Assembly (NCBI GenBank): GCA_025463165.1
Contig: JAOBAU010000337.1
Location: 1,073 to 65,072 of the forward strand
Source: Acidobacteriota bacterium
GTDB lineage: Bacteria; Acidobacteriota; Thermoanaerobaculia; Gp7-AA8
Direction of reading: 5' to 3'
Length of the DNA: 64,000 nt
In this document: one piece after another, positions 3,120-32,281 of the stretch
Layout: each line of letters begins with the position of its first letter
How positions within the stretch are numbered: the first letter of the stretch is position 1
Program-made: the position numbers and the translations under genes
Notes under the pieces: model-generated
Told to the model about the DNA's origin: nothing
What the model saw: the letters and a program-made list of their open reading frames with translations, nothing else
Databases searched by the model: none

Positions 3120-3156
3120 CGCGTCGCGCGCGCCGCGAAGCGCTATCCTTCCGTCA

Positions 3157-13907: not shown

Positions 13908-16186
13908 CGAATGCTGTCGCTGCGTCCGCCGTCGTCGACGACGACCAGCTGATGCGTGCCGCGTTTCGGCCGCAGAAACATCCGCTGCGATGGCACACCG
14001 GACGCGACGAGCACGCCGTCATCGAACCAGAAGAGTTGCGCGGCGTCGTTGGTCTGCGCGGTGAGCAGAATCTCCTGGAACTCGAGCGGCGCATCGCGGC
14101 GCAGGCGATACGGCGTCGCGCCATCGGGTGAAACGATTTTCGGCGGCGCATCCGTGGCGACGTCGCTGCATCGCTTCGCGAGCGGCGGCAGCGCTTCGAA
14201 CGGCTGCTCCTGCGCGCGCCACCACGCCACGAGCTCCGGCGGCTGCATTGTGACGATAATCGTCCGATGCGCGGTTTGCGCAACGCAATCGCCGGCCAGG
14301 CGTTCGCCGCTCTTCGCGTCGACGAGCACGGCGCGATGCAGCTCGCACGCGTGAAGGTGCGTCCGATCGGGGATGTATTCGACGCGCGTTCGCTCGCGAC
14401 AGAACTCGGTCGGCAGCTGATGGCTGATCGCACAAACCTCGATCGTCGAGATGCCGAGGCCGTCGGGACGGCGGAGATGGGCATCGCCTTCGATGGCGCG
14501 GAAGAGATCGAAGAGCAGCGGCGCGGCGAACTCGGAGCCCGACATTCCTTTCTGTCCGTGACCGTCGAAGTTGCCGGCCCAGACGCCGATCGCGTATCGC
14601 TCGGAAAATCCGACGCTCCACGCATCGCGATGTCCATACGACGTGCCGGTCTTCCACGCCACCGCCGGCATCTCCCGCGCCAGCTGCCACGCACGCGGCA
14701 TGTCCGGTCTCTTCACCTCGGCGAGGATGTCGGTCACGAGCGCGGTCGCCTCGCGCGAAAAGATTCGTGTGGGTTGTGTTTGTGCGCGGCGCAGCACGGT
14801 CGCCGGCCGATGCAGTCCGCCCTCAGCGAGCGTCGCGTAAAAATTCGTCAGGTCGACGAGCCGCACTTCACCCGCGCCGAGAATCAACGGCAATCCGTAA
14901 CGCGACGGATCGCGATCGATCGACGTCAGCCCACCGCGGCGCAGCAGCTTCACGAATTCTTCGACGCGCTCGCTCTGCAGCACGCGCACGGCCGGCGCAT
15001 TCAGCGATTGCACGAGCGCGTCGCGAACGGACACGCGTCCGCGATAGGTGCCGTCGTAGTTCTCGGGAACGTAGCCAGCGTAGTCGGTCGGGATATCGAG
15101 CAGATACGAATCGGGGATCAGCAGTCCGTCATCGAACGCCTTCGCGTAGAGGAACGGCTTGAGCGTCGAGCCGGGCGAGCGTCGCGCGGCGGCGCCATTG
15201 ACCTGTCCCTGACGCGCCGCCTCGAAGAATGACGCCGAGCCGACCATCGCCACGACTTCTCGCGTCCGGTTGTCGATAACGACGACCGCCGTCTGTCCGA
15301 CGCCGAACGCGCGCAGCGACGCGATGCGCGACGCCACCTGCTGTTCGGCGAGCCGCTGCACGCGGCGATCGAGCGTCGTGTAAACGCGCGCGCGGTCCCT
15401 CGCCTGCTGCACGGCGTAGTCGCAAAAGTGCGGCGCGATGAACGGCGGCTTGCGGCGTTCGATCGGCAGCGGCTGGCGCATCGCCTGTTCGATTTGTGCG
15501 GAGGAGAACGCGCCGCGATCGCGCAGCTGGCGAAGGACGCGGTCGCGTGCGCGCGTCGCGGTGACGTGATCGCGCAACGGATCGTAGCGATTGGGCGAGC
15601 GCGGAAGCGTCGTCAGAAACGCGATCTCGCCGAGCGAAAGTTGCGCCGGCGGCTTGCCGAAGTAGAGATACGCGGCCGCGCCGATCCCTTCGATGTTTGC
15701 GCCGTACGGCGCCATGTTCACGTACGCCTCGAGCAGCTCGCGGCGCGTGTGATGATGCACGAGCTGCAGCGCGCGAAATGCTTCGAGCAATTTCCCGCCG
15801 ACGGTGCGCGACTTCGGCTGCGACATCCGCGCGAGCTGCATCGGAATCGTCGACGCGCCGCTGACGATGCGACCCGCGCGAAGGTTGGAGATCGCCGCGC
15901 GGCCGATGGCGATCGGATTCACGCCGGGGTGCCGCCAGAACCACTGATCCTCCGACACGACCAGCGCGCGGATGAGCTCCGGCGGCAGCTCCTCGAGCGA
16001 CACCGGAATCCGCATCTTGTGATCGGCCGGCAGGATCATCCGAATCGGCTCACCGTCACGATCGAAGACGACCGTGGCCGGCGGCCGATGCAGCCGCGCT
16101 TCGGGAAATGGCGCGAAGAAATCGACGATCGCGAAGAGAAGAAAAGGAAGGACGATCGCCGCAACGACGATGACGAGCCTCTTCAT
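13892..16186 (-). CDS. pbpC: Penicillin-binding protein 1C (bifunctional transglycosylase/transpeptidase)
   Basis: ATG MKRLVIVVAAIVLPF with signal anchor. GT51 motifs EDQWFWRHPGVNP and GASTIPMQLAR, transpeptidase STLKPF. Conserved pairing with A2M. Confidence 0.85.
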   Translation of the reverse strand: MKRLVIVVAAIVLPFLLFAIVDFFAPFPEARLHRPPATVVFDRDGEPIRMILPADHKMRIPVSLEELPPELIRALVVSEDQWFWRHPGVNPIAIGRAAISNLRAGRIVSGASTIPMQLARMSQPKSRTVGGKLLEAFRALQLVHHHTRRELLEAYVNMAPYGANIEGIGAAAYLYFGKPPAQLSLGEIAFLTTLPRSPNRYDPLRDHVTATRARDRVLRQLRDRGAFSSAQIEQAMRQPLPIERRKPPFIAPHFCDYAVQQARDRARVYTTLDRRVQRLAEQQVASRIASLRAFGVGQTAVVVIDNRTREVVAMVGSASFFEAARQGQVNGAAARRSPGSTLKPFLYAKAFDDGLLIPDSYLLDIPTDYAGYVPENYDGTYRGRVSVRDALVQSLNAPAVRVLQSERVEEFVKLLRRGGLTSIDRDPSRYGLPLILGAGEVRLVDLTNFYATLAEGGLHRPATVLRRAQTQPTRIFSREATALVTDILAEVKRPDMPRAWQLAREMPAVAWKTGTSYGHRDAWSVGFSERYAIGVWAGNFDGHGQKGMSGSEFAAPLLFDLFRAIEGDAHLRRPDGLGISTIEVCAISHQLPTEFCRERTRVEYIPDRTHLHACELHRAVLVDAKSGERLAGDCVAQTAHRTIIVTMQPPELVAWWRAQEQPFEALPPLAKRCSDVATDAPPKIVSPDGATPYRLRRDAPLEFQEILLTAQTNDAAQLFWFDDGVLVASGVPSQRMFLRPKRGTHQLVVVDDGGRSDSIRYRVE

Positions 16187-19100
16187 CGCTTCCTCACAAT
16201 GAACACGCCTCTCTCCCCCACCGCATGATTGGCGCGCGCATACATCGCCTCGGCGAACAGCGGCTGCTGCTGAAACACGCCCGGTGTCACGGCGCGCAGC
16301 AGCGTATAGAACGTCAGCGCACCGGAGGCGGGAAGCTCGACGAAGTACAGCACCTGATCGTCGCGGATGTCGACGTTCGTGCACTCGCTGCCGTCGGTCA
16401 TCCACGGTAGTTTCTCCGTCGTCTTCAGCCGGGGATTCTCAACTTCCAGTCCGGCGGGGATGAGGTTCTGCACGACGACGTTGTCGAGCCGGCCGTTGAG
16501 ACTCTCGATCTTCATCGTGCAGATGAGCAGCTCGCCCTGCGTCACGCCGGTCGGATCGATCGGACTTCCATCACGCGTGTGCAGCTCGCGCGTGACGCGA
16601 ATGCCGGACGACTCCGGTTTGAATGCGGCCGCGGTCTTCACGCCGCGCGCGTCGAGCGAATAGAACGCGGCGCCGGACGTGTACGCGCCGTTCATCTTCA
16701 CGCGGATCGTTCCTTCACCTTGGATGTTGCGGAAGACAGCGGTGCGATTCTCGAACGTGCCGATGAGACGGTTGTCGAGGAAGACGGCACCGGAGTACGG
16801 CGGCATCGCTTTCTGATGTTTGATGAACTGGCCGAGCGCGAGCAGCGCGAACGCCGATTCCTGCGTCGTCCAGTACGGTTGCGCGGCATCGCGAGCGAGG
16901 CGCTCGACGAGCGGCGCGATGCGCGCGTCGTTCGGCGATGCGTCGAGGATCGCGAGCAGCAACATCGCCCGATTGCGGATCGCGGAGTCGAGGTTGTTGC
17001 CGGTGGTGCGCGCGACGTCATCGACGTCATGCAGTCCGCTGAGCAGCGTTTGAATGGCGACCGGATTGCCGACCGTCGCATACGCGGCGGCGAGCAGCGC
17101 GCGTCCTTCCGGATGAAGGTCGGACGCGTGATGCGCGCGGAGGAAATCCATGGTGCCGAGGTCCGGCTTGCCGGCGCGAGCGAGGATGTAGAGCTCGTAG
17201 ACGACGCGCTCCAGATCGAGCTCGTCGTAGTCGGATCGCGCCTTCGCATCGTTCGCGATGAACGCGAGCGCACGATCGTAGATCGGCGAGTCGACCGGAT
17301 GTCCGGCCCGGCGCGCCTCGACGAGGAAATGCGTCGCGTACGCGCTTCCCCACGGATAAACGTTCTGGCCGTACGGCCACATTGAAAAGCCGCCGGAGTA
17401 CGTCTGCATCGTGGCGAGTCGGCGAATTCCTTCGTGCACCATCGCGGTCGATTCGTTGTTGCGGAACGCGTCGGGATCGAGCTCCTTCGCGAGGTCGCTG
17501 AAGTAGATGAGCGGGAACACGCTCGACGTCGTTTGCTCGACGCAGCCGTACGGATAGTGCAGCAGATACTTCAGCTTTCCGCGGAAGCGGACGATCGGCA
17601 GCGGACTGACGACGAGTGTCCGTTCGACCGAGCCGGGAACGAACGGCTTCACGAGCTCGGGACGGAACGTCGCCGCGTTTTCCGTGAACGGTCCGGCCAC
17701 TTCGACAGTTTCGAGCGGCAGATCCCAGCGAACCGGCACGTCGAATTTCGCGGACGACTTTTCCCCGTTGCCTGACGCGGTTGCGGTGAAGACGATCTCT
17801 CCCGGCTGATGCGGCGCAGTCAGCGTGAAGTAGGCGGTCTTCTCAGTGGCGTTCGGAAGGTCAAGTTGTTGACGAACGGCTCCCGTCAGTTCGACGCTGA
17901 AGCGTCCGGCGCGGCCGGTGTCGTTGCGAACGGTGATCGGAATCGACACCTGATCGCCGACGCTGAGGAAGCGCGGCACGGTCGGCAGCAGCGTGATCGG
18001 ATCGTGGACGCGCACCATCGCTTCGCTGCTGCCGAAGCGGCGGCCGCGATGGACGACAGCCATCACGCGAATGCCTCCCTGAAAATCGGGGATCGCGAAC
18101 TCGGTGTGCACGCGGCCGTTCGCGTCGGCCTTCAGCGGTCCGGACCAGTACGAGACCGGCTTCGCGCGGCGGATCGAATCGGCGCGCACGTATTGCGCCT
18201 GCCCTTCTCCGCTCTCGCTGCCGCCGGCTGCCGCTTTCCCTTTCGGTTTCACCTCGGGGAGGAGCTGCGCGAAGATGTCGTATGTCGACGTGCCGAGGGC
18301 GAGCTTGCGATAGAACCATGAGAACGGATCGGCGGTCTTCTGCGCGATCAGTTGCAGGATTCCTTCGTCGACCGCGGCGATGGTGACGATGGCGCCCGGC
18401 TCGGCGGTGACGTCGATCGGCAGCGTGCGATTGGCGCGCAGTTCGGCCGGTGCTTTGATCGCGGGCGCGACGCGGTTCGCCGTGCGATCGACGTTGATCG
18501 GGATCGCGCCGAATGCGCGTCCCGCTTCGCCCGGCTCGAGATCGCCGGCGGTGCGAACGAGCGTCGCGGTGACGTAGCCGTTCGGACGGAGATCGGCGGT
18601 GATCGGGATGGAGATCTTCGCGCTGTTGCCGGCCAGCGTTTCGATGGAGATGTAGTGGATGCGATCGCGTTCGAGCGTGATCAGCAGCTTGCCGGCGAAC
18701 GGCGCCTTCACCTGCACGATCGCCGTGTCGCCCGGCGCGTACTCGTCCTTATCGAGCTCGAGCTGCAGGCGGCCGGGATTCTTCATCGCCCACGGCGAGT
18801 AGCCGCGGCCGCTCGCGTAGAACTCGACTTCTGCCGATGCGCCGGTCGCCGCGTCGGTGATGACGACGCGATACGAGCCGTATTCGCGCGGCGTGAAGAC
18901 GAACGAGCCGTGCGTCAGTCCGGCGGCGAGCGATTTCACCGCGACCTGCCGCGTCTCGCGCGTCGTCACGTAATCGTACGAACCGCTGCTCGAGCGGCGG
19001 AGCAGACAGTGCCAGCGATCTTCCATCAGCTCGGCGCGCAGCGTTCCGGCCGGCGACGGTTTTTCATCGTGGCCGACCGCGACCCACTCGAACGTTACGG

Positions 19101-21576
19101 CGCGGCCGGGATCGGGGTATTTGTCAGGATCACCGCCGCGGCGGATGCCGAGGTAGTAGGGAACGGGGTGCACCGGAACGTGTGCGATCGCGGAGACGCC
19201 GCGGCCGCCCTGTTCCTGCACGCGCGCAACGACGAGCGCTTCGAGCGACGATGGAACCTGGAGTCCGGCGGGAATGGCGAAGCGGAACTGTTTCGCGCCG
19301 GCGGCATCGAGCGCGCCGCTCTCGGTGGCCAGCTCGCGCGATTCGAATTTGCGATCGTTGTTCGCGAACGCGTAGCTCTCGAATCCGGTCGGCGTGAACT
19401 GCACCGGCATCAATCGCACGCGTGTTTCAACAGTGAGGTTCGCGGCCGGTGGACCAAAGAGATAGTTGCTGCCGACGTCGTAAATGAGGTCGTCGCCCGG
19501 CGACGCGGCTTTCGTCTTCGGCCGGATCTCGACCTTGATGCGATCGGGGACGAACTCCTCGACCTGGAAGCGATACGTGCCGATGACTTCCGTGCCGGCG
19601 ATGACGTCGAGCCGATGGTGGCCGGTGCGCGCGTACGGCGGAAGTTTGATCGTGAACGGCGCGACGCCGCCGTCGCCGATGGTGAGGCGCGTGCTTTCGC
19701 GCTCGTCGCTGCCGTCGAAATGTTTGGCGACGAGCGGCATTTGCGGTGGCGGTTGCAGCATCCGGTCGCGCACGACGGCGACGCCTTCGACGACTTCGCC
19801 GGGACGATAGATATCGCGCTCGGCGTAGACGAACGCGAAGTAGCCGGCGGCGGGCAGCTGATCGCCGGCGACGTCGAACGGCGAGATGTCGATCTGGCTC
19901 TTGTCGAAGTGGAGGAAGCTGTAGTCGCCACCTTTCTGCAGCGTGATGATCAGCGGCTTCTTTTTGCCGAGGATTTTGGTGAGCCCTTTGAGGTGGAAGA
20001 CGCCGCGCTCGTCGGTGCGGCCGGTTGCGAGCGTCTGGTTTTGCGTGCTGATCAGCGAGACCGCGGCGCCGTCGATCGGCGCGAGATCTTTGAACGACGA
20101 CGCCCATACGATCAGCTCGTCCTCCCCTTCTTTGGCGACGATGCCGATGTCTGTGATGAGAATCCAGCGAACGGACTGGTGATGCGCGTCGGCGACGGTG
20201 ACGCGATAGAGACCGGGCTCCGCCTTCTTCACGTACGGCTCGAGCGAGATCGTCGTTACGATCTTTTTGTTATGCGCTTTGCGCAAAGGCACGCGGCGGT
20301 AGGCGAGCCGATCGCCGAGCGACTCGGAGACGCCGGAGATCGAGACGTCGCTGTTCGGATCGACGTCGGCGTCCTCGTCGTATTCGTAGTTGTAGGAGCG
20401 GTAGTCGTACTGGTGCGTGAGCGCGAAGGCGATGTTGTTTCGATAGACGCGATCGACCGCGACCCAGGCTTCATCGACGTTCACGCTTTCGATGGCGACG
20501 TTTTTCCAGCCGCTGGCGGAGAGGAACATCCCTTCGCTCTGAAAGTCGAGCGAGTGCGCGAGATCGGGAAAGGTGACGTCGGCCGCGTAGCCGGCTTCGA
20601 GCGTGGCGTCGTCGGTGGCCGGCAGGCCTTTCGCGACGACGACGTGATACGCGCTGCCGGGCGTGAACGCGCCGATGAGCTGCAGGTCGTTCCCTTCGAC
20701 GCCGAGCTGGTACTTCACGGCCGGCGTGACGGTGACGAATTTCGAGGCGACGTCGGCAGCAACGGCTGACGACAGCTCGATGCGCAACGTCGACTCGTTC
20801 GTTCCCGATTTCCCTTCGACGTTGCGGACGACGAGCTTGTCGGACGAGCCGAGCTTCACCTCCTGCACGTAATCGTTTTGCAGGACGGAGCCGCGAATGC
20901 AGCCGGCCAGACCTTTCGAGATGACGAGCTTCAGCGTCCGCTCGCTGTTGCGCTTCTGCAGCGGGCGGCTGCGAAACGAAATGTCGGCGTTGCATCCCGG
21001 CGGCGAGGCGATCTCGAGCGGCTGATGCTCGTTGCCGTCGATCAGCTCGGCGCGCGTCACGAGCAGCTCGGGATTCACGTCGTAGTTGAGATAGATATCG
21101 CCCTGCAGCACGACGATGTGCCGCGCGGCGTCGATGACCTCTTCGTTGGTGACGATGGAACGGACGATCAGATCGTCGATGCGTACGCGCAGCTCGCCGT
21201 CGCCGCGAAAGCGCTGGCCGGCGGCGAGGAAGCGCGACTTGTTGAGCGTGATCGTGAATTGCGCGCCGGGGGCGAAACCGCCAGCCGGCTCGAAGCGGAG
21301 GACGTTGTTGGTGCGCCAGCGCCAGACGCCCTGCACGTGCGGATCGATGGTCGCCGGCGGCGGGATGACGACGCGGCCGGCCTGCGCGACGGAGACCGGG
21401 CGATCGAAGGTGATGTCGACCCAGGCGCGCTGGTTCCGATCGAGCTGCACGTCGAAGACGCCGATCGAGGAGTCATCGGCGGGAGCCGCGTTGTGCTGCA
21501 CCAACTGCGCGATGGCGGTCACGCCCGCGATGAACGCGAGCACGACGCCGAGAGCAATGAGATTTCGCCGTTCCAT
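16183..21576 (-). CDS. Bacterial alpha-2-macroglobulin family protein (thioester-containing), 1797 aa
   Basis: The size fits, and the thioester motif YPYGCVEQTTS (CxEQ) is present. N-terminal signal anchor. Stop TGA overlaps pbpC ATG (ATGA). Confidence 0.9.
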   Translation of the reverse strand: MERRNLIALGVVLAFIAGVTAIAQLVQHNAAPADDSSIGVFDVQLDRNQRAWVDITFDRPVSVAQAGRVVIPPPATIDPHVQGVWRWRTNNVLRFEPAGGFAPGAQFTITLNKSRFLAAGQRFRGDGELRVRIDDLIVRSIVTNEEVIDAARHIVVLQGDIYLNYDVNPELLVTRAELIDGNEHQPLEIASPPGCNADISFRSRPLQKRNSERTLKLVISKGLAGCIRGSVLQNDYVQEVKLGSSDKLVVRNVEGKSGTNESTLRIELSSAVAADVASKFVTVTPAVKYQLGVEGNDLQLIGAFTPGSAYHVVVAKGLPATDDATLEAGYAADVTFPDLAHSLDFQSEGMFLSASGWKNVAIESVNVDEAWVAVDRVYRNNIAFALTHQYDYRSYNYEYDEDADVDPNSDVSISGVSESLGDRLAYRRVPLRKAHNKKIVTTISLEPYVKKAEPGLYRVTVADAHHQSVRWILITDIGIVAKEGEDELIVWASSFKDLAPIDGAAVSLISTQNQTLATGRTDERGVFHLKGLTKILGKKKPLIITLQKGGDYSFLHFDKSQIDISPFDVAGDQLPAAGYFAFVYAERDIYRPGEVVEGVAVVRDRMLQPPPQMPLVAKHFDGSDERESTRLTIGDGGVAPFTIKLPPYARTGHHRLDVIAGTEVIGTYRFQVEEFVPDRIKVEIRPKTKAASPGDDLIYDVGSNYLFGPPAANLTVETRVRLMPVQFTPTGFESYAFANNDRKFESRELATESGALDAAGAKQFRFAIPAGLQVPSSLEALVVARVQEQGGRGVSAIAHVPVHPVPYYLGIRRGGDPDKYPDPGRAVTFEWVAVGHDEKPSPAGTLRAELMEDRWHCLLRRSSSGSYDYVTTRETRQVAVKSLAAGLTHGSFVFTPREYGSYRVVITDAATGASAEVEFYASGRGYSPWAMKNPGRLQLELDKDEYAPGDTAIVQVKAPFAGKLLITLERDRIHYISIETLAGNSAKISIPITADLRPNGYVTATLVRTAGDLEPGEAGRAFGAIPINVDRTANRVAPAIKAPAELRANRTLPIDVTAEPGAIVTIAAVDEGILQLIAQKTADPFSWFYRKLALGTSTYDIFAQLLPEVKPKGKAAAGGSESGEGQAQYVRADSIRRAKPVSYWSGPLKADANGRVHTEFAIPDFQGGIRVMAVVHRGRRFGSSEAMVRVHDPITLLPTVPRFLSVGDQVSIPITVRNDTGRAGRFSVELTGAVRQQLDLPNATEKTAYFTLTAPHQPGEIVFTATASGNGEKSSAKFDVPVRWDLPLETVEVAGPFTENAATFRPELVKPFVPGSVERTLVVSPLPIVRFRGKLKYLLHYPYGCVEQTTSSVFPLIYFSDLAKELDPDAFRNNESTAMVHEGIRRLATMQTYSGGFSMWPYGQNVYPWGSAYATHFLVEARRAGHPVDSPIYDRALAFIANDAKARSDYDELDLERVVYELYILARAGKPDLGTMDFLRAHHASDLHPEGRALLAAAYATVGNPVAIQTLLSGLHDVDDVARTTGNNLDSAIRNRAMLLLAILDASPNDARIAPLVERLARDAAQPYWTTQESAFALLALGQFIKHQKAMPPYSGAVFLDNRLIGTFENRTAVFRNIQGEGTIRVKMNGAYTSGAAFYSLDARGVKTAAAFKPESSGIRVTRELHTRDGSPIDPTGVTQGELLICTMKIESLNGRLDNVVVQNLIPAGLEVENPRLKTTEKLPWMTDGSECTNVDIRDDQVLYFVELPASGALTFYTLLRAVTPGVFQQQPLFAEAMYARANHAVGERGVFIVRKR

Positions 21577-23660: not shown

Positions 23661-24101
23661 TCAGAAGAGTTCCTCGGCCAGCGAGACGATGATGCCCGCC
23701 GGACCTCGCATGTAGCAGAGTCTGTACTTGTCTTCGTACTGCGCCACCTCGCCGACGAGCTCGGCGCCGATGGCGCGAAGGCGAGCGACCGTGTCGTCGA
23801 CGCTTTCGACGGTAAACATGACGCTCCGGAGACCCGGCGCGTTCGGCGGTGCGATTGCCGGTGAGAGCTCGATCAGCTCCGGATTCCGAAACTTCGTCAC
23901 TTCGAGCCGCCCGTGGCCGTCCGGAGTCCGCATCATGACGATGTCGGCCTGAACACCTTCGAGTGCGTTGATGCGGTCCACCCACGGACCCTCGACCGAC
24001 CCCTTGCCCTCGACGGTCATCCCGAGCGCGGTAAAGAAAGCAATCGCGCCTTCAAGGTCGTAGACGACGACGCTGATGTGGTCCAAACGCTTGATCGTCA
24101 T
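23661..24101 (-). CDS. VOC/glyoxalase-bleomycin resistance family protein
   Basis: LDHISVVVYDLEGAIAFF… VOC fold, 146 aa. Confidence 0.75.
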   Translation of the reverse strand: MTIKRLDHISVVVYDLEGAIAFFTALGMTVEGKGSVEGPWVDRINALEGVQADIVMMRTPDGHGRLEVTKFRNPELIELSPAIAPPNAPGLRSVMFTVESVDDTVARLRAIGAELVGEVAQYEDKYRLCYMRGPAGIIVSLAEELF

Positions 24102-24107
24102 ATCGCG

Positions 24108-24761
24108 CTACTTCGTGATCCAAACCTCTTTCGAATACTCGCGCAGCTTCGGCTCGGCGGCGTGGGCTTCCGCTTCGCCGGCGAATTTGACGCGCACTCG
24201 GTAGGTCGGTCCTTTGTCGTTCGTGCCGCGCTCGACGTATGCGGAGGTGAAACCGTGGTCGATCAGTTTGGCGGCGAGGGTTTCGGCGGTGTTCTTGTCG
24301 CCGGTGGAGAGAAGTTGCGCGTAGTACGGAACGGACGGCGTCGCGGGCGCGGCGGCGACCGGTGCAGGCTGCGGCGCGGCGATCGGTTTCGATGCTTCGA
24401 TCACGGTTGCGGTTGCGGCCGGCATTTCTGTCGATGGCGCTTCGGTCGTCGTCGGCGCGCTTTCGGTTGCGTGCGCGGTTGTCGTTGCATCTGCCGGCTT
24501 TTTGAAATCGTCGGCGTTGACGCCGAGCTCGACGATCGTGCCGCTGTTTTTCTTTGCGACAGCTGACGCTTCGGTGACGACGGCGGGCGCGGTGCGGACA
24601 ACCAGCCGTTCATCCGCCTGGCCTTTGCCGATCATCAGGCCAAAGGCGAACGATGCCGCGAGCGAGAGGAGCAGCAGGACGAACGCGACGAATGCCTGGC
24701 CGGCCGTCAGTGAAATTTCATAATGGGACTGATCGTCGGTGAGCACATCTTCAGACATCAC
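24108..24761 (-). CDS. SPOR domain-containing membrane protein (cell-division associated)
   Basis: TM helix FVAFVLLLLSLAASFAFGLMIG and an A/P/T-rich linker. C-terminal SPOR-like YYAQLLSTGDKNTAETLAAKL…YRVRV. Confidence 0.65.
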   Translation of the reverse strand: MMSEDVLTDDQSHYEISLTAGQAFVAFVLLLLSLAASFAFGLMIGKGQADERLVVRTAPAVVTEASAVAKKNSGTIVELGVNADDFKKPADATTTAHATESAPTTTEAPSTEMPAATATVIEASKPIAAPQPAPVAAAPATPSVPYYAQLLSTGDKNTAETLAAKLIDHGFTSAYVERGTNDKGPTYRVRVKFAGEAEAHAAEPKLREYSKEVWITK

Positions 24762-24879: not shown

Positions 24880-25548
24880 TCACTTGGCCGGCGGAGCGGC
24901 CGCGTTCCAGTTTGTGTGATAGACGACGCCGTTGTCAAAGTAGACGGCCGACGCTCCGCCGTCCTGTTTCGGATAGATCCAGACTGAATAGACGCGGCTG
25001 TTCTGCACGACCTGCTTGATCCAGTCCTCGCGCGGGACGCCGACCAGCTTGCGCACGTCGTCCTCTTTCATGCCGCTCTTCACGTTCGCGAACGACGCCA
25101 TCGCCACGTAGCGCCGCTTCTCGGCGGCGGCGATTCGCGCCAGCGCGTCGGCGTTCGACGGCTCGAACTGCAGCGCCTGGCGGTACTGTTCGATCGCGCG
25201 GTCGTAGCGCGACAGGACGTTCATGTACTGATCGCCGAGGATGATCTTCTCGTGTGCGAGCGCCTGCGAGGCGCGCGGGTCGCCGGTCCGCTCGTAATAC
25301 TCGGTCAGCTTGCGCATGAAGGCGTTGTACGGCTCTTCGATCTTCCGCGTGTTGTCGAGCACCAGCTCGATCTGCTGTTTGCGCGACGACGACGGCGACG
25401 GCACCGGCTGCGCTTTGCGCAACGTTTCCAGCCACTGCTGATCGGCGGCGATGAGGTTCCACTCCTTGTCGTTCGGCTTCGTCGGAATGGAAGGAGCGGT
25501 GGCGCAGGCGGAGGCGAAGAGCGCGATGGCGAGGAGGAGCTTTCTCAT
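24880..25548 (-). CDS. Lipoprotein, TPR-like helical, function unknown
   Basis: Lipobox LFASAC after MRKLLLAIA. 222 aa. Confidence 0.6.
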   Translation of the reverse strand: MRKLLLAIALFASACATAPSIPTKPNDKEWNLIAADQQWLETLRKAQPVPSPSSSRKQQIELVLDNTRKIEEPYNAFMRKLTEYYERTGDPRASQALAHEKIILGDQYMNVLSRYDRAIEQYRQALQFEPSNADALARIAAAEKRRYVAMASFANVKSGMKEDDVRKLVGVPREDWIKQVVQNSRVYSVWIYPKQDGGASAVYFDNGVVYHTNWNAAAPPAK

Positions 25549-25581: not shown

Positions 25582-26688
25582 CTATCGCCGGAGCGCTTCC
25601 ACCAGTCGCACCACTTCCTTCTCCGCGCCGTCGCCGAACTCCGTCTTGATCTCGATGATCCAGCCGTAAAGCAGCTCGTTGAGCGCGGCGTGCACGATGG
25701 CTGCGCGGTCGTGCGAGCCGGAGGCGATCATGTTCGTCAGCAGCTGATCGAAATCGATCCGCCCTTCGTTGACGAGGTTCATGCCGGAGAGATACGGCAG
25801 CGTTTCCGGCGAGACGTGCAGGACGACGCGATCCATGAAGTCGTACGTGTGATCGCCGATCCGCTGAAAGACGAGGTTGAAGATTTTCTGGAACGCGGAG
25901 TTGTACTGCTCGACGATTCCTTCGAGCTCGTACTCGCTCGCCTCTTCGGCGCGTTTCACGTCGACGTCGGCGCTCTCCGCATCCTGCACAAGATTGACGG
26001 CGAGCAAACCCCACAGCGTGCGGCAGGTGACGAAGTTCGAGAGGTAGCTCTGCGCGCAGATCGCTTCAATCGTCCGCGGCTCGCGCATCAGTGAGAGGAC
26101 GTGCGTCTCTTCGTCCGACATCTCGAGGTGATAGCTGCGCGCGTCGACGCCGGGAACCTGTTCGAGAAGACGCGAGAGCCGGCCGAGGCCGCGCGAGATC
26201 AGCGACCAGAACTCGATGCCGGCGACGCCGTCGAGGATCAGCCGTTCCGTCGGGAGATTGAGTGAAAGGATCTCGTCAGGAAACTCGCTCGTGAACGACA
26301 GCGTGTAGCTGCCGCTGCGGTAACGCATCGAGCCGAGGACGATCGCGCTCGCCTGCTCTTCGACGGCTCGAATTAGTTCATCCGGATGCAGAAATCCCAT
26401 CTCGCAAAGGAGTGAGCCGATGCGACGCGATACGACCAGCTTTTCCATCGCTTCGTCGTACTGCTGGAGATTCAGCTCGCCCGATCGCAGCAGCACTTCG
26501 GCCAGCCCCATGTCGGGATCGGAGCTGGCGGCGGAGACGATGCGTCCTTCGGTGAAGTAGATCGTGTCGTTGCGGCCGATCGCTTCGAGAGAGACGATCG
26601 CCGTCTCCGCGCTGCGGACGAGCGAGCGGAAGAGATCGGGCACGGTCGTCTCGGCGAGTGTGCCCTGAATGGAAAGGTCGTCGGACAT
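25582..26688 (-). CDS. DUF4388 (PATAN-like) domain protein
   Basis: N-terminal LSIQGTLAETTVPDLFRSL is typical of DUF4388. ATG at 26688 preferred (gap of 13 nt after GGDEF stop). Confidence 0.6.
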   Translation of the reverse strand: MSDDLSIQGTLAETTVPDLFRSLVRSAETAIVSLEAIGRNDTIYFTEGRIVSAASSDPDMGLAEVLLRSGELNLQQYDEAMEKLVVSRRIGSLLCEMGFLHPDELIRAVEEQASAIVLGSMRYRSGSYTLSFTSEFPDEILSLNLPTERLILDGVAGIEFWSLISRGLGRLSRLLEQVPGVDARSYHLEMSDEETHVLSLMREPRTIEAICAQSYLSNFVTCRTLWGLLAVNLVQDAESADVDVKRAEEASEYELEGIVEQYNSAFQKIFNLVFQRIGDHTYDFMDRVVLHVSPETLPYLSGMNLVNEGRIDFDQLLTNMIASGSHDRAAIVHAALNELLYGWIIEIKTEFGDGAEKEVVRLVEALRR

Positions 26689-26701
26689 GGGAGCCCGAAG
26701 A

Positions 26702-28012
26702 TTACTCGCTGACGACCGGTTTTTGCGCATCCTCGACGGTGGCGATCCCGACCGCGTTCTTCGTCGTCGACTTCACGCGGTACATCGCCGCGTCCGCCTG
26801 GCGGATGAGCCCTTCCTTCGTCACGGCGTGCGCCGGATAGGTGGCGATGCCGAAGCTGGCGGTGATCGAGATCTCGACCGTCGCATCGAGTTGCAGCGGC
26901 AGCGCGGTCAGCGCTTTGCGGACGCGGTTCGCGACGAGCAGCGCCTGATCCTGATCGGTCTGCGGCAGGATGATGCAGAACTCGTCGCCGCCGAAGCGGA
27001 CGACTTTGTCGATGCCGCGCACCGCCGAGAGAATTCGCTTCGCCACTTCCTGCAGCGTGCGCGAGCCGGTCAGATGGCCGTAGAAGTTGTTGACCATCTT
27101 CAGGTCGTCGAGGTCGAGAAAGATGATGCTGAAGAGCGAGCCGTAGCGGCGCGAGCGCTCCATCTCCTCGTCGAGGTACGACTCGAAGAAGCGGCGGTTG
27201 TACGCCTTGGTGAGATCGTCGCGCATCGCCAGGTCGCGGCTGCGCGTCAGCTGATAGATGTTGCTGAGGACCTGGACGACGGCGGAGATGTAGCGGCCGA
27301 CGCTGCGGATCGTTTCGTCGTCGACCGGCAGCACGCCGGGCGGTTCGTCGCCGAGCGGCACGCGAATCACGCCGATCAGATCGTGCTCGACCTGCAGCGG
27401 AATGACGAGCAGCTTCATCTCGAGGTCCTGAGCGAACGAGAGGCCGGAGGCGAGCGCGCGCTGCAGGAGATCGGGCGGAATGCCGGGGAGGAACTCGCCG
27501 GTCTCGCGGTATTCGGGATCGTTCGAGAAGCTGACGACGTAACGCTCGAGCCGCGGATCATGGAGGAAGAGCGTGCCGCGCGCGAGCCCCAGGATGTTCA
27601 ACGCCGTGCGCGTGATCCGCTCGGAGACGGCGCCCGCTTCGACCATCGTCATCAGTTCCTGCACCTGCGACAGGTAGCTGATCTCCGCTTCGAGCTGTGC
27701 GGCGTGGATGGCGGTGTCGGCGAGATCGTTGGCGAAGAAGAGGTACTCGCCGGGATCGGCAAGGAAGACGTCGCGGCGAACGCGCATCTCTCCGTGACGG
27801 CGGCCGGATGGCGCGTCGGCGTCAGAAAGAATGATGCGCACGAGGCTCTTGCGAGGCGGCGGATCGATCTGCGCGTGCGAGTCGGAATCGATCAGCGCGA
27901 TCCGCGCGGTGTCGCGCGCGTCGCCATCCGGAGCGAAGGCGAGCGCCGGGCATAACCTGCGAAGATCGTCGACGACCTGGTGCCGTCCGCTGTAAACGCC
28001 GATGGTCTGCAT
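26702..28012 (-). CDS. GAF-GGDEF diguanylate cyclase
   Basis: RYGSLFSIIFLDLDDLKMVNNFYGH…RFGGDEFCIIL (GGDEF A-site). N-terminal GAF-like region. Confidence 0.85.
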   Translation of the reverse strand: MQTIGVYSGRHQVVDDLRRLCPALAFAPDGDARDTARIALIDSDSHAQIDPPPRKSLVRIILSDADAPSGRRHGEMRVRRDVFLADPGEYLFFANDLADTAIHAAQLEAEISYLSQVQELMTMVEAGAVSERITRTALNILGLARGTLFLHDPRLERYVVSFSNDPEYRETGEFLPGIPPDLLQRALASGLSFAQDLEMKLLVIPLQVEHDLIGVIRVPLGDEPPGVLPVDDETIRSVGRYISAVVQVLSNIYQLTRSRDLAMRDDLTKAYNRRFFESYLDEEMERSRRYGSLFSIIFLDLDDLKMVNNFYGHLTGSRTLQEVAKRILSAVRGIDKVVRFGGDEFCIILPQTDQDQALLVANRVRKALTALPLQLDATVEISITASFGIATYPAHAVTKEGLIRQADAAMYRVKSTTKNAVGIATVEDAQKPVVSE

Positions 28013-28030
28013 CTTTACGACCTAAGCGTT

Positions 28031-30274
28031 TCAGTTTACACCGCTTCGGCGGCGGCGAACGATGACGAGCGCGACGATGCAGGCAAGCGTCGCGAAGCTG
28101 ATGGCGCGTCCGGCGACGAACGATTCCGGCAGGTACGTGAGGCGAACGGAGTGCCGTCCGTGCGGAAGGTGGACGCCGAGAAATGCGTGGTTGGCGAGCT
28201 GGTAGCGAATGCGACGGCCGTCGACGTACGCGCGCCAGCCGTTCCACGCGGTTTGGGAAACGACGATCCAGCCGTCGCGTTCCATGTCGGCGTCGATGCG
28301 CCAGCCGAGCGTGCGCCGCTTCATCGACACGATCGTCCCCGGTCCGTTGTCGCGTTCGTGCGATGGGACGTCGGCAGCGAGCCACGAACGTTCGCCGAAA
28401 TCGGTCGCGCTCTGCATCTCCGCGAGCTCGTTTGGTGCATTGATGCGAACGTGTTTGGGGATGAATGCACGCGGGAGTGCGGCGGGATTTTCGATGAGCC
28501 GGCCGGTGCGATCGGCGGCCACTTCGCGCCAGCCGGGCGGAATCGGATCGCTCGCCTTCGTCAGCGCGAAGCGGACGTTCATCATCGCGAGGAACGGACG
28601 GGAGAGATCGTCGACGCGGTTGAACCACGGACCGATCCGCGCGCACCAGAGCGGATACGTTTCGGCGAGCGGACGAAAGGTCATCGCTTCGTAGCCGCGC
28701 GCGTCTTCGAGTCCGTAAAGCGTGGCGGTGTTCGGGAGGAAGGTCATGCCAGTGCCGACGATACGGAACGGCTCGCGGATGTCGGCGAGTGGCGCGAGAA
28801 TCGCGATCTTCGGGTAGGCGGCATCGCGTGCGTTCGCGGGATAAAGGAAGCCTTGTTCGAGCGTTCGCTGGATGAGGAGCGCGGCGAGGAGGATTCCCCC
28901 TTTACGCGGCATGAGCGCGACGGCGGCGAGCGGTGCTAATTCTGCGAAGAGGCGCAAGGATGCCCATGAGGGTGCGTCGTTGAGCACAAAACGGTTGGCG
29001 ACGAGGCTGGCGGCGCCGATGACAAGCAGCGCGATGACAAAAACAAAACGCGGCGCGTCGTCGCGTGCCGCAAGTGCGGCGAGCATCACGAGGCAAAACG
29101 CCGCCGCGAATGCGAGCCGCTCGTTGAGCGCGACGTCGAACAACGGCAGCGCATGCAACACCGTCGAGACCGGCGGCGCCTTGAGCGCGGCGAGCGCGCA
29201 AACGACGAACGCAATCGTGAAGAACCACTTCTCGCGCGAGCGGATCGTGAACGCACCGAGCAGCGCCAGCACGACGACAATGCTTCCCACCGCCATCCGC
29301 TCGTTTGGCAGATTGCGCAGCGCCGGCGCGCGCCACGTTCGTCCTTCGAGGAACGGAAAGAGATCGACCGCGGCACCGGCAGCGATTCGTTCGATGCGAT
29401 CGCTGCGCGCCGACGTCGCGTACACACGCTGACGAAACGCATGCTCCTCCGTCTGGCGCAACGCGTCGATCACCGGGAGCAGGTAGATCGCGGAGAGAGC
29501 CAGCGCGACGATTCCCGACACGATCGCGGTCACCGCCGCGCGCCGGCGATCGCTCGCAATCCACAACTCGAACACGCCATACGCCGCGCCGAACGCGATG
29601 ACATGCAGCAGCGACTCCGGATGTCCGCTCAGCGTCGCCAGCGTCAGCACGAGCATCAACAACATGCTGTTCGCGAACGACGGCGTGCGCACCGTTCGTC
29701 GTGTCGCGAGCAACAACGACGGCAGCAGCGCCCACGTCGCGCCGAGCGGCCACATCGCGAACGTCGACACAGGCGTCGACAACATCCAGCCGATCGCCGC
29801 GAAGAGCGCCGCCGCTTCACCGCATCCGAGCTCCGCGGCGAAGAGAAACGCGCCAAGCGACGCGAGAAACAACGTCAGATATGTCGAGATGTTGAAGCTC
29901 TCCGCCGCCGGCAGCAAACAGGCGATCCACGTGATGGGGCTGTACGCCGCCGGCTGCGCGGCCGCCGCGAGAATGTCGCCGCCGAGAATCGAGCGATTGA
30001 CCAGCGGCCACTCGCGATGCGCGAGCGATTCGCGCACCGCCGCCCGCCACGGAATCATCTGAAATGCGACGTCGAGCAGCACGCCGTTGTGCATCCCTCC
30101 GACGCCATTCGCATTCTTCATCCCGTGGAGTGGCTCGGTCATGTACGCCATCTCGATCGGCGCGACGAGCCGTCCGGTGAGCACTGCGCGGCCGGTCATC
30201 GCCAGAGGCAGAAACGCGAGCGCGATGAGGATTCGCGCGCGCGGCCGGCGGTGACATGATTCGCTCGTGCGCAT
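28031..30274 (-). CDS. YfhO-like polytopic membrane protein (putative GT-C glycosyltransferase)
   Basis: About 12 TM helices in the N-terminal two-thirds, a soluble C-terminal domain and a final TM AISFATLACIVALVIV, matching YfhO topology. Start ATG at 30274 or 30199. Confidence 0.55.
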   Translation of the reverse strand: MRTSESCHRRPRARILIALAFLPLAMTGRAVLTGRLVAPIEMAYMTEPLHGMKNANGVGGMHNGVLLDVAFQMIPWRAAVRESLAHREWPLVNRSILGGDILAAAAQPAAYSPITWIACLLPAAESFNISTYLTLFLASLGAFLFAAELGCGEAAALFAAIGWMLSTPVSTFAMWPLGATWALLPSLLLATRRTVRTPSFANSMLLMLVLTLATLSGHPESLLHVIAFGAAYGVFELWIASDRRRAAVTAIVSGIVALALSAIYLLPVIDALRQTEEHAFRQRVYATSARSDRIERIAAGAAVDLFPFLEGRTWRAPALRNLPNERMAVGSIVVVLALLGAFTIRSREKWFFTIAFVVCALAALKAPPVSTVLHALPLFDVALNERLAFAAAFCLVMLAALAARDDAPRFVFVIALLVIGAASLVANRFVLNDAPSWASLRLFAELAPLAAVALMPRKGGILLAALLIQRTLEQGFLYPANARDAAYPKIAILAPLADIREPFRIVGTGMTFLPNTATLYGLEDARGYEAMTFRPLAETYPLWCARIGPWFNRVDDLSRPFLAMMNVRFALTKASDPIPPGWREVAADRTGRLIENPAALPRAFIPKHVRINAPNELAEMQSATDFGERSWLAADVPSHERDNGPGTIVSMKRRTLGWRIDADMERDGWIVVSQTAWNGWRAYVDGRRIRYQLANHAFLGVHLPHGRHSVRLTYLPESFVAGRAISFATLACIVALVIVRRRRSGVN

Positions 30275-31043
30275 TGCCCAGCTTCTCCTTCCCGGCGCAT
30301 CGGAGTACGAGCGCAAATCGCAGCGGATCGACGCCGCGGCGCTGACCGCCGCCGGCTTCGAGCTCACCAGTGAAAACGAGGCAGACGTCGCGCACGTCTA
30401 CGGTCCCGATCCGCTCCCCGCTCTCCGCAAACTTCGCATCCCGTTCGTGGCGAACGCCCGGCCACGAAACAGCTGGTGGTTTCGCGCGCCCGAACCGGCC
30501 GCCGTCATCTCACCATTGAAAGACTCCGCGCACTTCGTCCCGGAGGCAATCGACGATCTCTACTTCGCCGAGCGCATCCCTCGCCCACCCGACGGCCGCT
30601 ATCGCCTCGGCAGTACGCATCGCGCCGGCATTCACCAAATCATCGACCTGACTTTGCACCGGCTGCATCGATTTCGCGACGATATCGACTGGCTTATCTT
30701 CGATCATCCGCCAACGCTGGATGAGCTTGGCGGCCTCGACGCGTGGGTCGATCCCGCCGCGGCGAGCACCGACTTCGACGGCTTCGTCGCCGAGGCGCTC
30801 GCCGCGGGACTCGCGGTCGTCGCGACGCGCACTGCCATCAATTTGCAGCGGACGGAAAAAGGTCGGACCGCGCTGTTGGTACCGTACGATCCGAACGAGC
30901 TCACTCATGCGATACTAGCCGCCCTGTTCAAGGCCGAGGTCCACCGTCCCAGGATCGACGCGGCGCGACAGACCATCTCGAAGTTCCGCGCGAAACACCG
31001 GGTCCGAACCCTCGCGCGGATCTACGAAAACCTGGGCCAATGA
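30267..31043 (+). CDS. Glycosyltransferase family 4-like (short or degenerate N-terminal domain)
   Basis: C-terminal GT4 signature FVAEALAAGLAVVATRTAINLQRTEKGRTALLVPYDPNELTHAILAAL. GTG start at 30267 overlaps the divergent YfhO start, so boundaries are uncertain. Confidence 0.5.
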   Translation: MRIAQLLLPGASEYERKSQRIDAAALTAAGFELTSENEADVAHVYGPDPLPALRKLRIPFVANARPRNSWWFRAPEPAAVISPLKDSAHFVPEAIDDLYFAERIPRPPDGRYRLGSTHRAGIHQIIDLTLHRLHRFRDDIDWLIFDHPPTLDELGGLDAWVDPAAASTDFDGFVAEALAAGLAVVATRTAINLQRTEKGRTALLVPYDPNELTHAILAALFKAEVHRPRIDAARQTISKFRAKHRVRTLARIYENLGQ

Positions 31044-32281
31044 CCGATTTCTCCGATCTCCCCAACCCGCAGCGGCGTGCTCTCGATCTCGTCCGGGAAG
31101 TCGCGGCCGAAAAGGAATGCCGCCCATATCTCGTCGGCGGTCCTGTCCGCGATCTCCTCCTCGGCCGTCACTCCATCGATGTCGACGTCACCCTCGAGGA
31201 CGGCAGCTCCACGCTTGCACGCGCGCTCGCAAAACGGCTCAACGGCCGCGTGCGCTCGTTCCCGCAGTTCCTGACGTACAAAGTGTCCGCGGAGGGATTG
31301 CCGGAAATCGACATCGCCACCGCGCGAAAAGAGCGCTATCGCAAACCGGGCGCGCTGCCGACCGTCACCGCCGGCCGGCTGAAGGACGATCTGCTGCGCC
31401 GCGACTTCTCCATGAACGCGCTGGCGATGGATCTCGTCACCGGCTCGATGCATGATCCTGCACACGGCGAGCAGGATATCCGCACCGGTGTGATCCGCGT
31501 CCTGCACGATCAAAGCTTCCTCGACGACCCGACGCGCATCTTTCGCGCGCTCCGTTTCGCCGGCCGCCTCGGCTTCACGCTCGATCCGCATACCGATGCG
31601 CTGCTTCGCGTCGCCATCGCCGGCGGCGCGCTCGGCTTCATCTCGCGCGAACGCATCTGGCGTGAGCTCTTCCTCGCGATGGAAGAAGAAGGTGCGCCGA
31701 AAGTACTGACAATGCTCCGCGGCTCAGGCGCCCTCGACGTGCTCTTCGGCGAGAGCGGCGGCCAGCCGCCGTCGGCAGCGCTGCTCGAACAGGTTCGCGA
31801 TCAGGTCGCGTCGAATCCGGAGCTCGATCGCGAAGTGCTTTACACCGCGGCGCTGCTGCATGGAACGGAGCCGACCGTCGCACAACTCGAAGGCTCCGGC
31901 TTCTCACAGAAGCGCGCACGCAACGTGCTGCAGATCGCACGCGAGCTGCCGCGCTACGAGCGCGCTCTCGCCGAACTCGTTTCCGATCGCCAGCGCTTCC
32001 GCCTCTACAAGAGCGTGTCGCGCGAGCTGCTCAGCATTCTTTCGGCGCGTCGTCCCGAGGAACAGGAGCACGTCGCGCGCTATCACGACTACGTGAAGTT
32101 CAAGCTTCCGCTGCGCGGAAACGATCTCGAAGTGCCGCTCGGACCGCACGTCGCGAAGGCGCTGGAGCGGACGCGCGAAGCGGTGTTCAGCGGCGAGATC
32201 GATGCGGGTGAAGCGCGCTCGTTTGCGCGCGAGATGGCGATCAAGTACCTTAGCCACGAACAGCCATCCGACTCGAAATGA
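31040..32281 (+). CDS. cca: tRNA nucleotidyltransferase (CCA-adding enzyme)/poly(A) polymerase family
   Basis: LVGGPVRDLLLGRHSIDVDV head-domain motif, plus RRDFSMNALA. ATGA overlap with upstream gene. Confidence 0.8.
   Translation: MTDFSDLPNPQRRALDLVREVAAEKECRPYLVGGPVRDLLLGRHSIDVDVTLEDGSSTLARALAKRLNGRVRSFPQFLTYKVSAEGLPEIDIATARKERYRKPGALPTVTAGRLKDDLLRRDFSMNALAMDLVTGSMHDPAHGEQDIRTGVIRVLHDQSFLDDPTRIFRALRFAGRLGFTLDPHTDALLRVAIAGGALGFISRERIWRELFLAMEEEGAPKVLTMLRGSGALDVLFGESGGQPPSAALLEQVRDQVASNPELDREVLYTAALLHGTEPTVAQLEGSGFSQKRARNVLQIARELPRYERALAELVSDRQRFRLYKSVSRELLSILSARRPEEQEHVARYHDYVKFKLPLRGNDLEVPLGPHVAKALERTREAVFSGEIDAGEARSFAREMAIKYLSHEQPSDSK

Follow-up and report, generated by a model that had tools for sequence, protein, structure and literature searches.

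A conserved diguanylate cyclase–PATAN operon with a putatively accessory YfhO-family glycosyltransferase gene in Thermoanaerobaculia

We analysed a 64-kb stretch of Acidobacteriota DNA (the window; 64,000 nucleotides of contig JAOBAU010000337.1) in which three minus-strand genes encode a YfhO-family membrane glycosyltransferase, a diguanylate cyclase with a GGDEF domain and a protein with a PATAN (DUF4388/PatA_N) domain. Divergent from them is a short gene for a protein that resembles GT4 glycosyltransferases. The closest public relatives of the window are metagenome-assembled genomes of Acidobacteriota, class Thermoanaerobaculia, and its G+C content is 62-67%. A first-pass annotation of this DNA had read the four genes as one unit in which cyclic di-GMP (c-di-GMP) controls glycosylation of the cell envelope. 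All four genes are real, and all components come from known families. Comparison with relatives leads us to a different arrangement, which we hold to be probable on comparative sequence grounds: a conserved operon of cyclase, PATAN protein, TPR lipoprotein and SPOR-domain protein, a young accessory YfhO gene and a separate divergent operon, with the cyclase and the PATAN protein acting as signalling partners.

Genes at the locus and their protein families

The open reading frames (ORFs) and spacers of the three minus-strand genes read as first described, with the short gaps listed in Table 1. A hairpin scan of 8.5 kb detected no terminator-like hairpin in either of these spacers; its seven terminator-like hairpins compare with 6.5 expected from shuffles, which is the chance level. 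A promoter scan did not find a sigma-70-like site, and such a scan is uninformative for Acidobacteriota. Co-transcription of the three genes, as originally proposed, is plausible. The array itself runs on beyond the PATAN gene, through the TPR lipoprotein gene, the SPOR gene and further genes, and reaches the housekeeping genes LOG and Mrp/ApbC on the same strand.

The positions of two starts deserve comment. Because all homologues begin MSD(D/E)LSIQG, the PATAN protein almost certainly starts at ATG 26688. ATG 30274 is the likely start of YfhO, with AAGGAG 10 nt upstream and the first transmembrane (TM) segment, TM1, kept whole. The NCBI copy of the protein (P0001, 722 aa) starts instead at M57, 25 codons after ATG 30274 and inside TM1, and in relatives 42-48 nt separate the called YfhO and GT4-like starts. 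The 8-bp overlap of divergent starts reported earlier follows from the choice of ATG 30274 against the GTG at 30267. The overlap is therefore uncertain, and the original caution about the boundaries at 30267/30274 was well placed.

The assignment of the 778-aa maximal ORF to the YfhO/GT-C families was borne out. Its Pfam hidden Markov model (HMM) match to YfhO, PF09586, scores 68.9 bits (cut-off 28.5; E=4e-19, in two stretches), and homologues carry the name YfhO at NCBI and JGI. Pfam shows only this domain in the protein and no c-di-GMP receptor domain. By hydropathy, residues 1-500 hold about 13 TM segments; a soluble domain of about 250 aa (500-750) and a C-terminal TM segment follow. An AlphaFold2 (AF2) model built with 28 homologues (pLDDT 84, pTM 0.87) has ArnT as its best Foldseek match (E=1.8e-6, TM score 0.56), and the further best matches are all GT-C enzymes: AftD, AftA, STT3, PglB, DPY19, EmbA/B and PMT. 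A phmmer search against PDB sequences gave zero matches. The catalytic base of GT-C enzymes is a conserved acidic residue in the first extracytoplasmic loop. In the window protein a candidate for this residue is D68 (747-aa numbering), in the first periplasmic loop after TM1, which is invariant in the 28 homologues; D100 is nearly invariant among them. By HMM, topology and predicted fold, we regard the protein as a real GT-C enzyme.

The same family, with the window protein above its cut-off, includes the Firmicutes YfhO types: B. subtilis CsbB/YfhO, the Listeria GtlB-type enzymes of lipoteichoic and wall teichoic acids (LTA/WTA) and S. mutans PgfM1/PgfM2. The window protein has the same GT-C fold and the same layout, with numerous TM segments, then a large domain outside the cytoplasm, then a C-terminal TM segment, and its C-terminal region gives weak matches to the PgfM2/PgfM1 models. 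However, its NCBIfam equivalog scores lie far under the cut-offs (45 against 1500), and its host is a diderm member of the Acidobacteriota without teichoic acids. The classical CsbB/YfhO arrangement has an adjoining GT2 gene, whereas a tblastn search of the 64-kb window with one query, the GT2 beside the YfhO paralogue of contig L006, did not find a CsbB-like partner. No paralogues of the four genes were found elsewhere in the window, and the Pfam-annotated ORFs, which span about 1-36.7 kb of it, include no exopolysaccharide (EPS) cluster and no pilus genes.

The cyclase had been described as a GAF-GGDEF protein. Its GGDEF domain is secure (PF00990, E=4e-44; TIGR00254, 163 bits against a cut-off of 37), and hydropathy indicates a soluble protein with no TM segment. 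The spacing of RxxD and GGDEF, five residues apart, is that of product-inhibited cyclases such as PleD. Since the RGID-5 aa-GGDEF arrangement is invariant in orthologues, both the active site (A-site) and the product-inhibition site (I-site), whose integrity the annotation had wanted checked, look intact. The GAF part of the description did not hold in the same way: GAF_3 scores 17.9 bits (E=0.004), under its cut-off of 27, and a profile of residues 1-255 matches the GAF domain of Nlh1 (4g3k) at E=0.09 only. The two weak matches fall on the same residues and suggest a GAF-like fold in the middle region; the N-terminus resembles a degenerate receiver by eye.

The PATAN protein was correctly assigned: its DUF4388 (PF14332) match scores 61.4 bits, where 25 is the cut-off. 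That match pairs 151 residues (22-172) with 118 profile positions, which points to an insertion of about 30-50 residues. We refer to this insertion, a helical-hairpin pair at residues 61-112, as the alpha-clip. A helical C-terminal domain of about 190 aa without a family match follows the PATAN domain. The family is 68-97% identical across Thermoanaerobaculia and has 3999 relatives at E<=1e-3. Downstream, the TPR lipoprotein has a hydrophobic N-terminal segment and matches TPR_11 (27.6 bits against a cut-off of 26.8), and the SPOR protein matches its domain at 38 bits against 21, with a TM segment at residues 24-42. By eye, the C-terminal ~70 residues of the TPR lipoprotein (24880-25548) look like the BamE/SmpA-OmlA type; Pfam makes no such report.

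Across the divergent start lies the gene described before as GT4-like with a short N-terminal domain, and the description fits. Within PimA, the family profile aligns solely with the C-terminal Rossmann half (PimA 256-367, E=1e-5), and the Pfam match to Glyco_trans_1_4 reaches 28.0 bits against a cut-off of 27 over residues 167-220 only. GT4 (GT-B) enzymes have two full Rossmann-like domains (~350-400 aa) and an EX7E motif. The window protein is 258 aa long, has T168 at the position of the first EX7E Glu, which is variable among family members, and carries AIN in place of the GG loop; D169, D171 and E176, in contrast, show no variation. The family is a large one of 255-300-aa Thermoanaerobaculia proteins. 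We regard the protein as GT4-related, with uncertain catalytic competence.

Table 1. Coordinates of the features discussed (window positions)
Feature	Position	Strand	Details
YfhO-family GT-C membrane glycosyltransferase	28031..30274	-	747 aa from ATG 30274
YfhO maximal ORF	28031-30367	-	778 aa
Spacer, YfhO stop to GGDEF start	28013..28030	-	18 nt
Soluble GGDEF diguanylate cyclase	26702..28012	-	436 aa
I-site RGID (R332-D335), KVVRF, A-site GGDEF (G341-F345)	26978..27019	-	invariant in seven orthologues
Spacer, GGDEF stop to PATAN start	26689..26701	-	13 nt
PATAN (DUF4388/PatA_N) protein	25582..26688	-	368 aa; ORF extends to 26730
Alpha-clip, MshEN-like helical hairpin pair, residues 61-112	26353..26508	-	profile homology
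Alpha-clip motif I, G61-K83/L84	within 26353..26508	-	degenerate
Alpha-clip motif II, R89-Q112, RIGSLLCEMGFLHPDELIRAVEEQ	26353-26424	-	fits strict 24-residue consensus
TPR lipoprotein	24880..25548	-	222 aa; lipobox LFASAC; 33 nt past PATAN gene
Single-pass membrane protein with C-terminal SPOR (peptidoglycan-binding) domain	24108..24761	-	PF05036
GT4-like protein	30267..31043	+	258 aa; start GTG 30267
CCA enzyme, divergent operon	31040-32281	+	second gene; 4-bp start-stop overlap with GT4-like gene

The YfhO gene in relatives

Using tblastn, we classified the gene order on 80 metagenomic contigs with PATAN orthologues, plus the loci collected earlier. A contig counted as informative if 1.5 kb or more of its sequence was available upstream of the PATAN gene (n=57), and the next gene was visible in 38 of them. 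Beyond the cyclase, the GT4-like gene is directly divergent in 30 of these 38, typically across a spacer of 31-53 nt. YfhO sits between the GT4-like gene and the cyclase in only five, namely three from the window's close clade plus L040 and L054, and the remaining three have something other than either gene at this place.

The contig L001 makes the point at close range. Its flanking proteins are 96-97% identical to those of the window, but YfhO is missing, and the GT4-like gene is directly divergent from GGDEF-PATAN-TPR-SPOR-LOG-Mrp. Comparison of the DNA shows that L001 retains both ends of YfhO, namely the ~13-19 5'-most codons and the final ~16, along with the 18-nt spacer and the start of GGDEF, and has lost ~2.15 kb inside YfhO (window ~28081 to ~30216-30236). 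The deletion lies between the short direct repeats ATCGCGCTCGC and ATCGTCGCGCTCG. This YfhO-plus/YfhO-minus pair of near-identical genomes serves as a natural demonstration that the glycosyltransferase is dispensable.

Three more close relatives have YfhO at the site, with proteins 89% (L010), 79% (L009) and 69% (L011) identical to that of the window, and the gene of L011/L016 is split over two reading frames. YfhO diverges faster than its neighbours: 69-89% identity compares with 89-98% for the CCA-adding enzyme, GGDEF and PATAN proteins in the same clade. Because it is deleted in a near-identical relative, frameshifted in another and fast-evolving, YfhO appears to be an accessory, dispensable gene of the locus. 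The adjacent GT4-like gene is also variable, at 70-87% identity to the window among L001, L009, L010 and L011 against 92-97% for the CCA enzyme next to it, and the L001 copy falls below every Pfam threshold. Judged from these alignments, the divergent start region, comprising the GT4-like gene and YfhO, is a local hotspot of fast change.

More distant YfhO relatives, at 45-49% identity on long contigs, have unrelated neighbourhoods; one of them (L006) adjoins a GT2 gene in the classical CsbB-YfhO arrangement. We placed 123 YfhO proteins in a rough neighbor-joining tree, which includes partial sequences and carries no support values. Here the window clade groups with L040 and L068, while L054 and L031 pair elsewhere. 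The YfhO-GGDEF pair is rearranged in L068, and in L031 YfhO is divergent and directly beside PATAN, without the cyclase. All of these fall within a larger clade, whose other members have unrelated contexts. The view that YfhO is limited to one narrow clade was dropped, as the 80-contig sample has YfhO beside the module in L040, L054, L068 and L031. From this distribution the association of YfhO with the module seems sporadic, at about one contig in eight, and to have come about or been rearranged on more than one occasion. A loose, lineage-specific functional link is possible, and this recurrence is the one point in its favour.

With or without YfhO, the GT4-like gene heads a divergent operon in the order GT4-like, CCA-adding enzyme, hypothetical, RsmD, PhoH, YbeY. 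It belongs to a separate, conserved operon of housekeeping type, and neither a link to YfhO nor its earlier inclusion in a glycosylation system is supported by the gene orders.

These patterns bear directly on the proposal that all four gene products make up one system, in which c-di-GMP controls the glycosylation of an envelope polymer or exopolysaccharide. The tight spacing (18 and 13 nt) with no terminator agrees with it, as does the identification of YfhO as a real GT-C enzyme, and two YfhO sub-lineages adjoin the module (L040, L054, L068 and L031 besides the window clade). It also has a precedent in E. coli NfrB-DgcJ, where a glycosyltransferase is under local c-di-GMP control via MshEN and where cyclase, MshEN-type motif and glycosyltransferase are encoded together, as in the window (PMC8669469). 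The resemblance has limits: NfrB is a GT2 enzyme that carries MshEN itself, whereas in the window the MshEN-like element is part of a different protein, the PATAN protein, and one of its half-sites is degenerate, the glycosyltransferase belongs to GT-C and lacks a receptor domain, and the three-gene association occurs in 5 of 38 contigs. Set beside the known c-di-GMP-controlled polysaccharide systems (BcsA-PilZ, Alg44, PelD and NfrB-MshEN), the locus shows neither a receptor domain in YfhO by Pfam nor a conserved co-occurrence. YfhO is absent from the site in 30 of 38 contigs, deleted in the relative with 96-97% identical flanks and frameshifted in another. Neither a GT2 donor-synthase partner (one-query tblastn of the 64-kb window) nor an EPS cluster (Pfam, ~1-36.7 kb) was detected, and the GT4-like gene, with its atypical donor-binding motifs, lies in the other operon and is conserved regardless of YfhO. 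We therefore consider the one-system proposal unlikely, and as a conserved entity a dedicated second-messenger-controlled glycosylation system is not supported. If true, it would represent a new way of regulating a GT-C enzyme, which the comparative data do not support.

The cyclase-PATAN module and the alpha-clip

While the neighbourhoods in relatives, which the annotation had proposed to examine, did not uphold the linkage to YfhO, they did uphold the cyclase-PATAN pair. In 41 of the 57 informative contigs the orthologous cyclase lies immediately upstream of the PATAN gene, and the adjacency persists to ~65% protein identity, with gaps usually of 10-130 nt. Downstream, 47 of the 60 contigs with at least 1 kb of sequence there carry the TPR lipoprotein gene on the same strand (32 directly, 15 past an inserted gene), and the SPOR gene comes after the TPR gene in relatives. 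Additionally, L014 carries, divergent from the PATAN gene, a different GGDEF gene whose membrane product is not orthologous to the usual cyclase (29% identity, AGDEF); this makes a second, independent cyclase-PATAN adjacency. A cyclase-PATAN-TPR-SPOR module is in this way conserved in an uncultured, abundant soil class.

Such an order could in principle be inherited in a compact genome with no functional relation among the genes. The array does continue into the unrelated housekeeping genes LOG and Mrp/ApbC, and unrelated genes have been inserted at several points of it in relatives, such as a GNAT gene (L013) and the gene for a 737-aa repeat protein (L014). Against this stand the GGDEF-PATAN adjacency in 41 of 57 contigs and its persistence over large protein distances, the non-orthologous GGDEF gene that takes the place of the usual one in L014, and the homology of the PATAN insertion to a c-di-GMP-binding module. 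We find mere inheritance of gene order very improbable. The inserted L014 gene (8108-10321), between the PATAN and TPR genes, was considered as a further GT-C enzyme and ruled out; its product is a secreted protein with ELWxxDGT-type repeats and no Pfam hit.

In MshEN, c-di-GMP binding takes place through two tandem 24-residue motifs with a 5-residue spacer, each of the form RLGxx(L/V/I)(L/V/I)xxG(L/V/I)(L/V/I)xxxxLxxxLxxQ (Wang et al., PMC5013675). The alpha-clip of the PATAN protein is related to this bundle. A profile of the family's own alpha-clips against PDB matches PilF of T. thermophilus (1.4e-3) and MshE of V. cholerae (5HTL, 3.9e-3), and the top four matches are all GSPII/MshEN. A second profile, made from distant PATAN relatives picked by similarity and not by motif, matches PilF (4e-16), MshE (2.5e-9) and PilB (7.6e-8), with 14 of 14 matches in MshEN/GSPII. 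An earlier profile gave similar results but was biased because its segments had been picked with the MshEN regular expression, and a single-sequence phmmer search of the PATAN protein against PDB found PilF only, at E=0.21. On the strength of the profile matches, we consider the alpha-clip homologous to the MshEN c-di-GMP-binding bundle. A likeness of the alpha-clip to the N-terminus of type II secretion and type IV pilus ATPases was noted before (Makarova et al. 2006, cited in bioRxiv 10.1101/2021.06.11.447907). In the literature searched, we found no report of a PATAN domain that binds c-di-GMP.

The two halves of the alpha-clip differ in how well they keep the binding motif. Motif II matches the strict consensus, its key positions (R, G, the Leu residues and Q) are invariant in 25 family members, and the motif's regular expression finds one match in the six-frame translation of the window and none in 200 shuffles. 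Motif I departs from the consensus, with G61 for R9 of MshE, A63 for G11 and an invariant E71 for I19; it is also shorter by one residue, and K/R83 takes the place of the Gln. Thus, compared with the two-motif MshEN/GSPII proteins (MshE 5HTL, PilF and PilB), the window protein has a homologous hairpin pair, with profile E-values from 1e-3 to 1e-16, in which motif II fits but motif I lacks the Arg, Gly and hydrophobic positions. It also has no MshEN_C subdomain or ATPase, and the element sits as an insertion in the PATAN domain. In most of the distant PATAN relatives, RLG opens both halves. Many distant relatives (P0370-P0510) are proteins of 700-1000 aa with two PATAN modules, and both modules contain a 24-mer of MshEN type, located around residues 96 and 338. 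RLG is usually present in both halves of the first module; in the first half of the second module, as in the window protein, G-L-(V/I) is the usual sequence.

The PATAN domain (PF14332) with an alpha-clip insertion is common to the window protein and the PatA-type regulators, which include PixE/PixG/LsiR of Synechocystis, PatA of Anabaena and SgnC of M. xanthus. As described in one preprint (bioRxiv 10.1101/2021.06.11.447907), PATAN is a membrane-directed output domain for protein-protein interaction, one PATAN-type regulator binds PilB1 and PilC and localises to the membrane, and the cyanobacterial member Slr1594 is co-transcribed with an EAL gene. Unlike these regulators, the window protein has no receiver domain and has the ~190-aa helical C-terminal domain instead. 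Beside its gene lie those for the GGDEF cyclase, the TPR lipoprotein and the SPOR protein, with no type IV pilus genes nearby among the Pfam-annotated ORFs (~1-36.7 kb). The PATAN protein is likely a local partner or effector of the cyclase, and we consider a cyclase-effector pair plausible but unproven.

We propose a model with two layers. The old layer would be an operon found throughout the Thermoanaerobaculia, encoding a soluble, product-inhibitable cyclase, the PATAN protein, the TPR lipoprotein and the SPOR membrane protein, divergent from a housekeeping-type operon headed by the short GT4-like gene. On a signal sensed by its N-terminal receiver-like and GAF-like region, the cyclase would make c-di-GMP, with RxxD limiting the output. 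The PATAN protein, whose alpha-clip is an MshEN homologue with one perfect half-site, would be the local effector or partner of the cyclase. By analogy with cyanobacterial PatA-type regulators it may be an output module that binds membrane machinery, and its target would most likely be the envelope- or division-associated partners encoded downstream. In the young layer, a YfhO gene lies between the operon's promoter region and the cyclase in the window's sub-lineage, probably co-transcribed with the cyclase. YfhO would share only transcription with the signalling genes and would independently move a sugar from a polyprenyl-phosphate donor to an acceptor at the outer face of the inner membrane.

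Several observations weigh against this arrangement or parts of it. Members of two or more YfhO sub-lineages lie beside the module (one comprising the window clade, L040 and L068, the other L054 and L031), which is more than pure hitch-hiking would lead one to expect. The contig counts do not represent independent lineages, and some contigs are near-duplicates. The choice between insertion of YfhO and ancestral presence with many losses is based on parsimony rather than on a rooted species tree. The cyclase-PATAN pair is not obligatory, as 16 of the 57 informative contigs have no orthologous cyclase beside the PATAN gene. With regard to the ligand, the NCBIfam model for the MshE-related c-di-GMP motif, NF053729, scores 22.1 bits, under its cut-off of 38. 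Because motif I lacks equivalents of R9, G11 and I19, c-di-GMP binding by the PATAN protein is doubtful; comparable changes abolish binding in XpsE and PilF GSPII-A. Finally, the AF2 model of the PATAN protein, built from 25 sequences of 68-97% identity, has a pLDDT of 65, and under 50 across residues 58-105. A fold search with this low-confidence model returned nothing at E<=0.001.

An alternative is that the PATAN protein is not a c-di-GMP sensor, that its alpha-clip is structural or binds proteins, and that it scaffolds or localises the cyclase, or that both share an envelope target, with c-di-GMP read elsewhere. The degenerate motif I, in which R9 and I19 of MshE are replaced by invariant G61 and E71, the loss of binding that small motif deviations cause in PilF GSPII-A and XpsE, and the sub-threshold NF053729 score all favor it. 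So do the 16 of 57 contigs in which the neighbouring cyclase is missing and the known use of PATAN as a protein-protein output domain. It fits less well with the strict conservation, across the family, of every c-di-GMP-contacting residue of motif II, or with the two different GGDEF genes that adjoin the PATAN gene, and a dimer of single intact half-sites could hold a symmetric ligand. We judge a PATAN protein of this non-sensing kind possible, if on balance doubtful.

Returning to the cyclase and PATAN protein as signalling partners, canonical c-di-GMP binding by the PATAN protein is uncertain from its sequence, and it is conceivable that a PATAN dimer with two intact half-sites binds the ligand. 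In the boldest version, to which we assign little probability, the alpha-clip would be a working half-site: two copies would clamp one c-di-GMP from the neighbouring cyclase, the dimer would switch the TPR/SPOR envelope or division module, and YfhO would have been recruited at least two times. If this were true, envelope glycosylation would be a lineage-specific output of the same c-di-GMP signal, and a ligand would be assigned to a widespread domain with thousands of relatives, many of them two-module proteins. The presence of an MshEN-type motif beside a c-di-GMP synthase raises the concrete question of whether PATAN domains read c-di-GMP.

Flanking genes of the window

Beyond the genes of Table 1, the Pfam-annotated neighbours include genes for a kinase, MsrA and the like. 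Between the SPOR and LOG genes is a 146-aa ORF (23661-24101, minus strand), glyoxalase/VOC-like by eye, which is absent from that place in L001, L002 and L009 and represents a small lineage-specific insertion. At 13892-21576 on the minus strand, an alpha-2-macroglobulin gene (A2M; a 1797-aa ORF with MG/A2M/TED domains) is followed by one for a PBP1C-type protein (Transgly, Transpeptidase and BiPBP_C); A2M and PbpC form a classical gene pair. At the left end of the window (117-5511, plus strand) lie genes for a Sortilin/BNR-repeat protein and a Ser/Thr kinase-TPR protein. Genes of these two types also flank a YfhO paralogue in L007/L008 (10420-16369), so the DNA just beyond the window might hold another YfhO gene.

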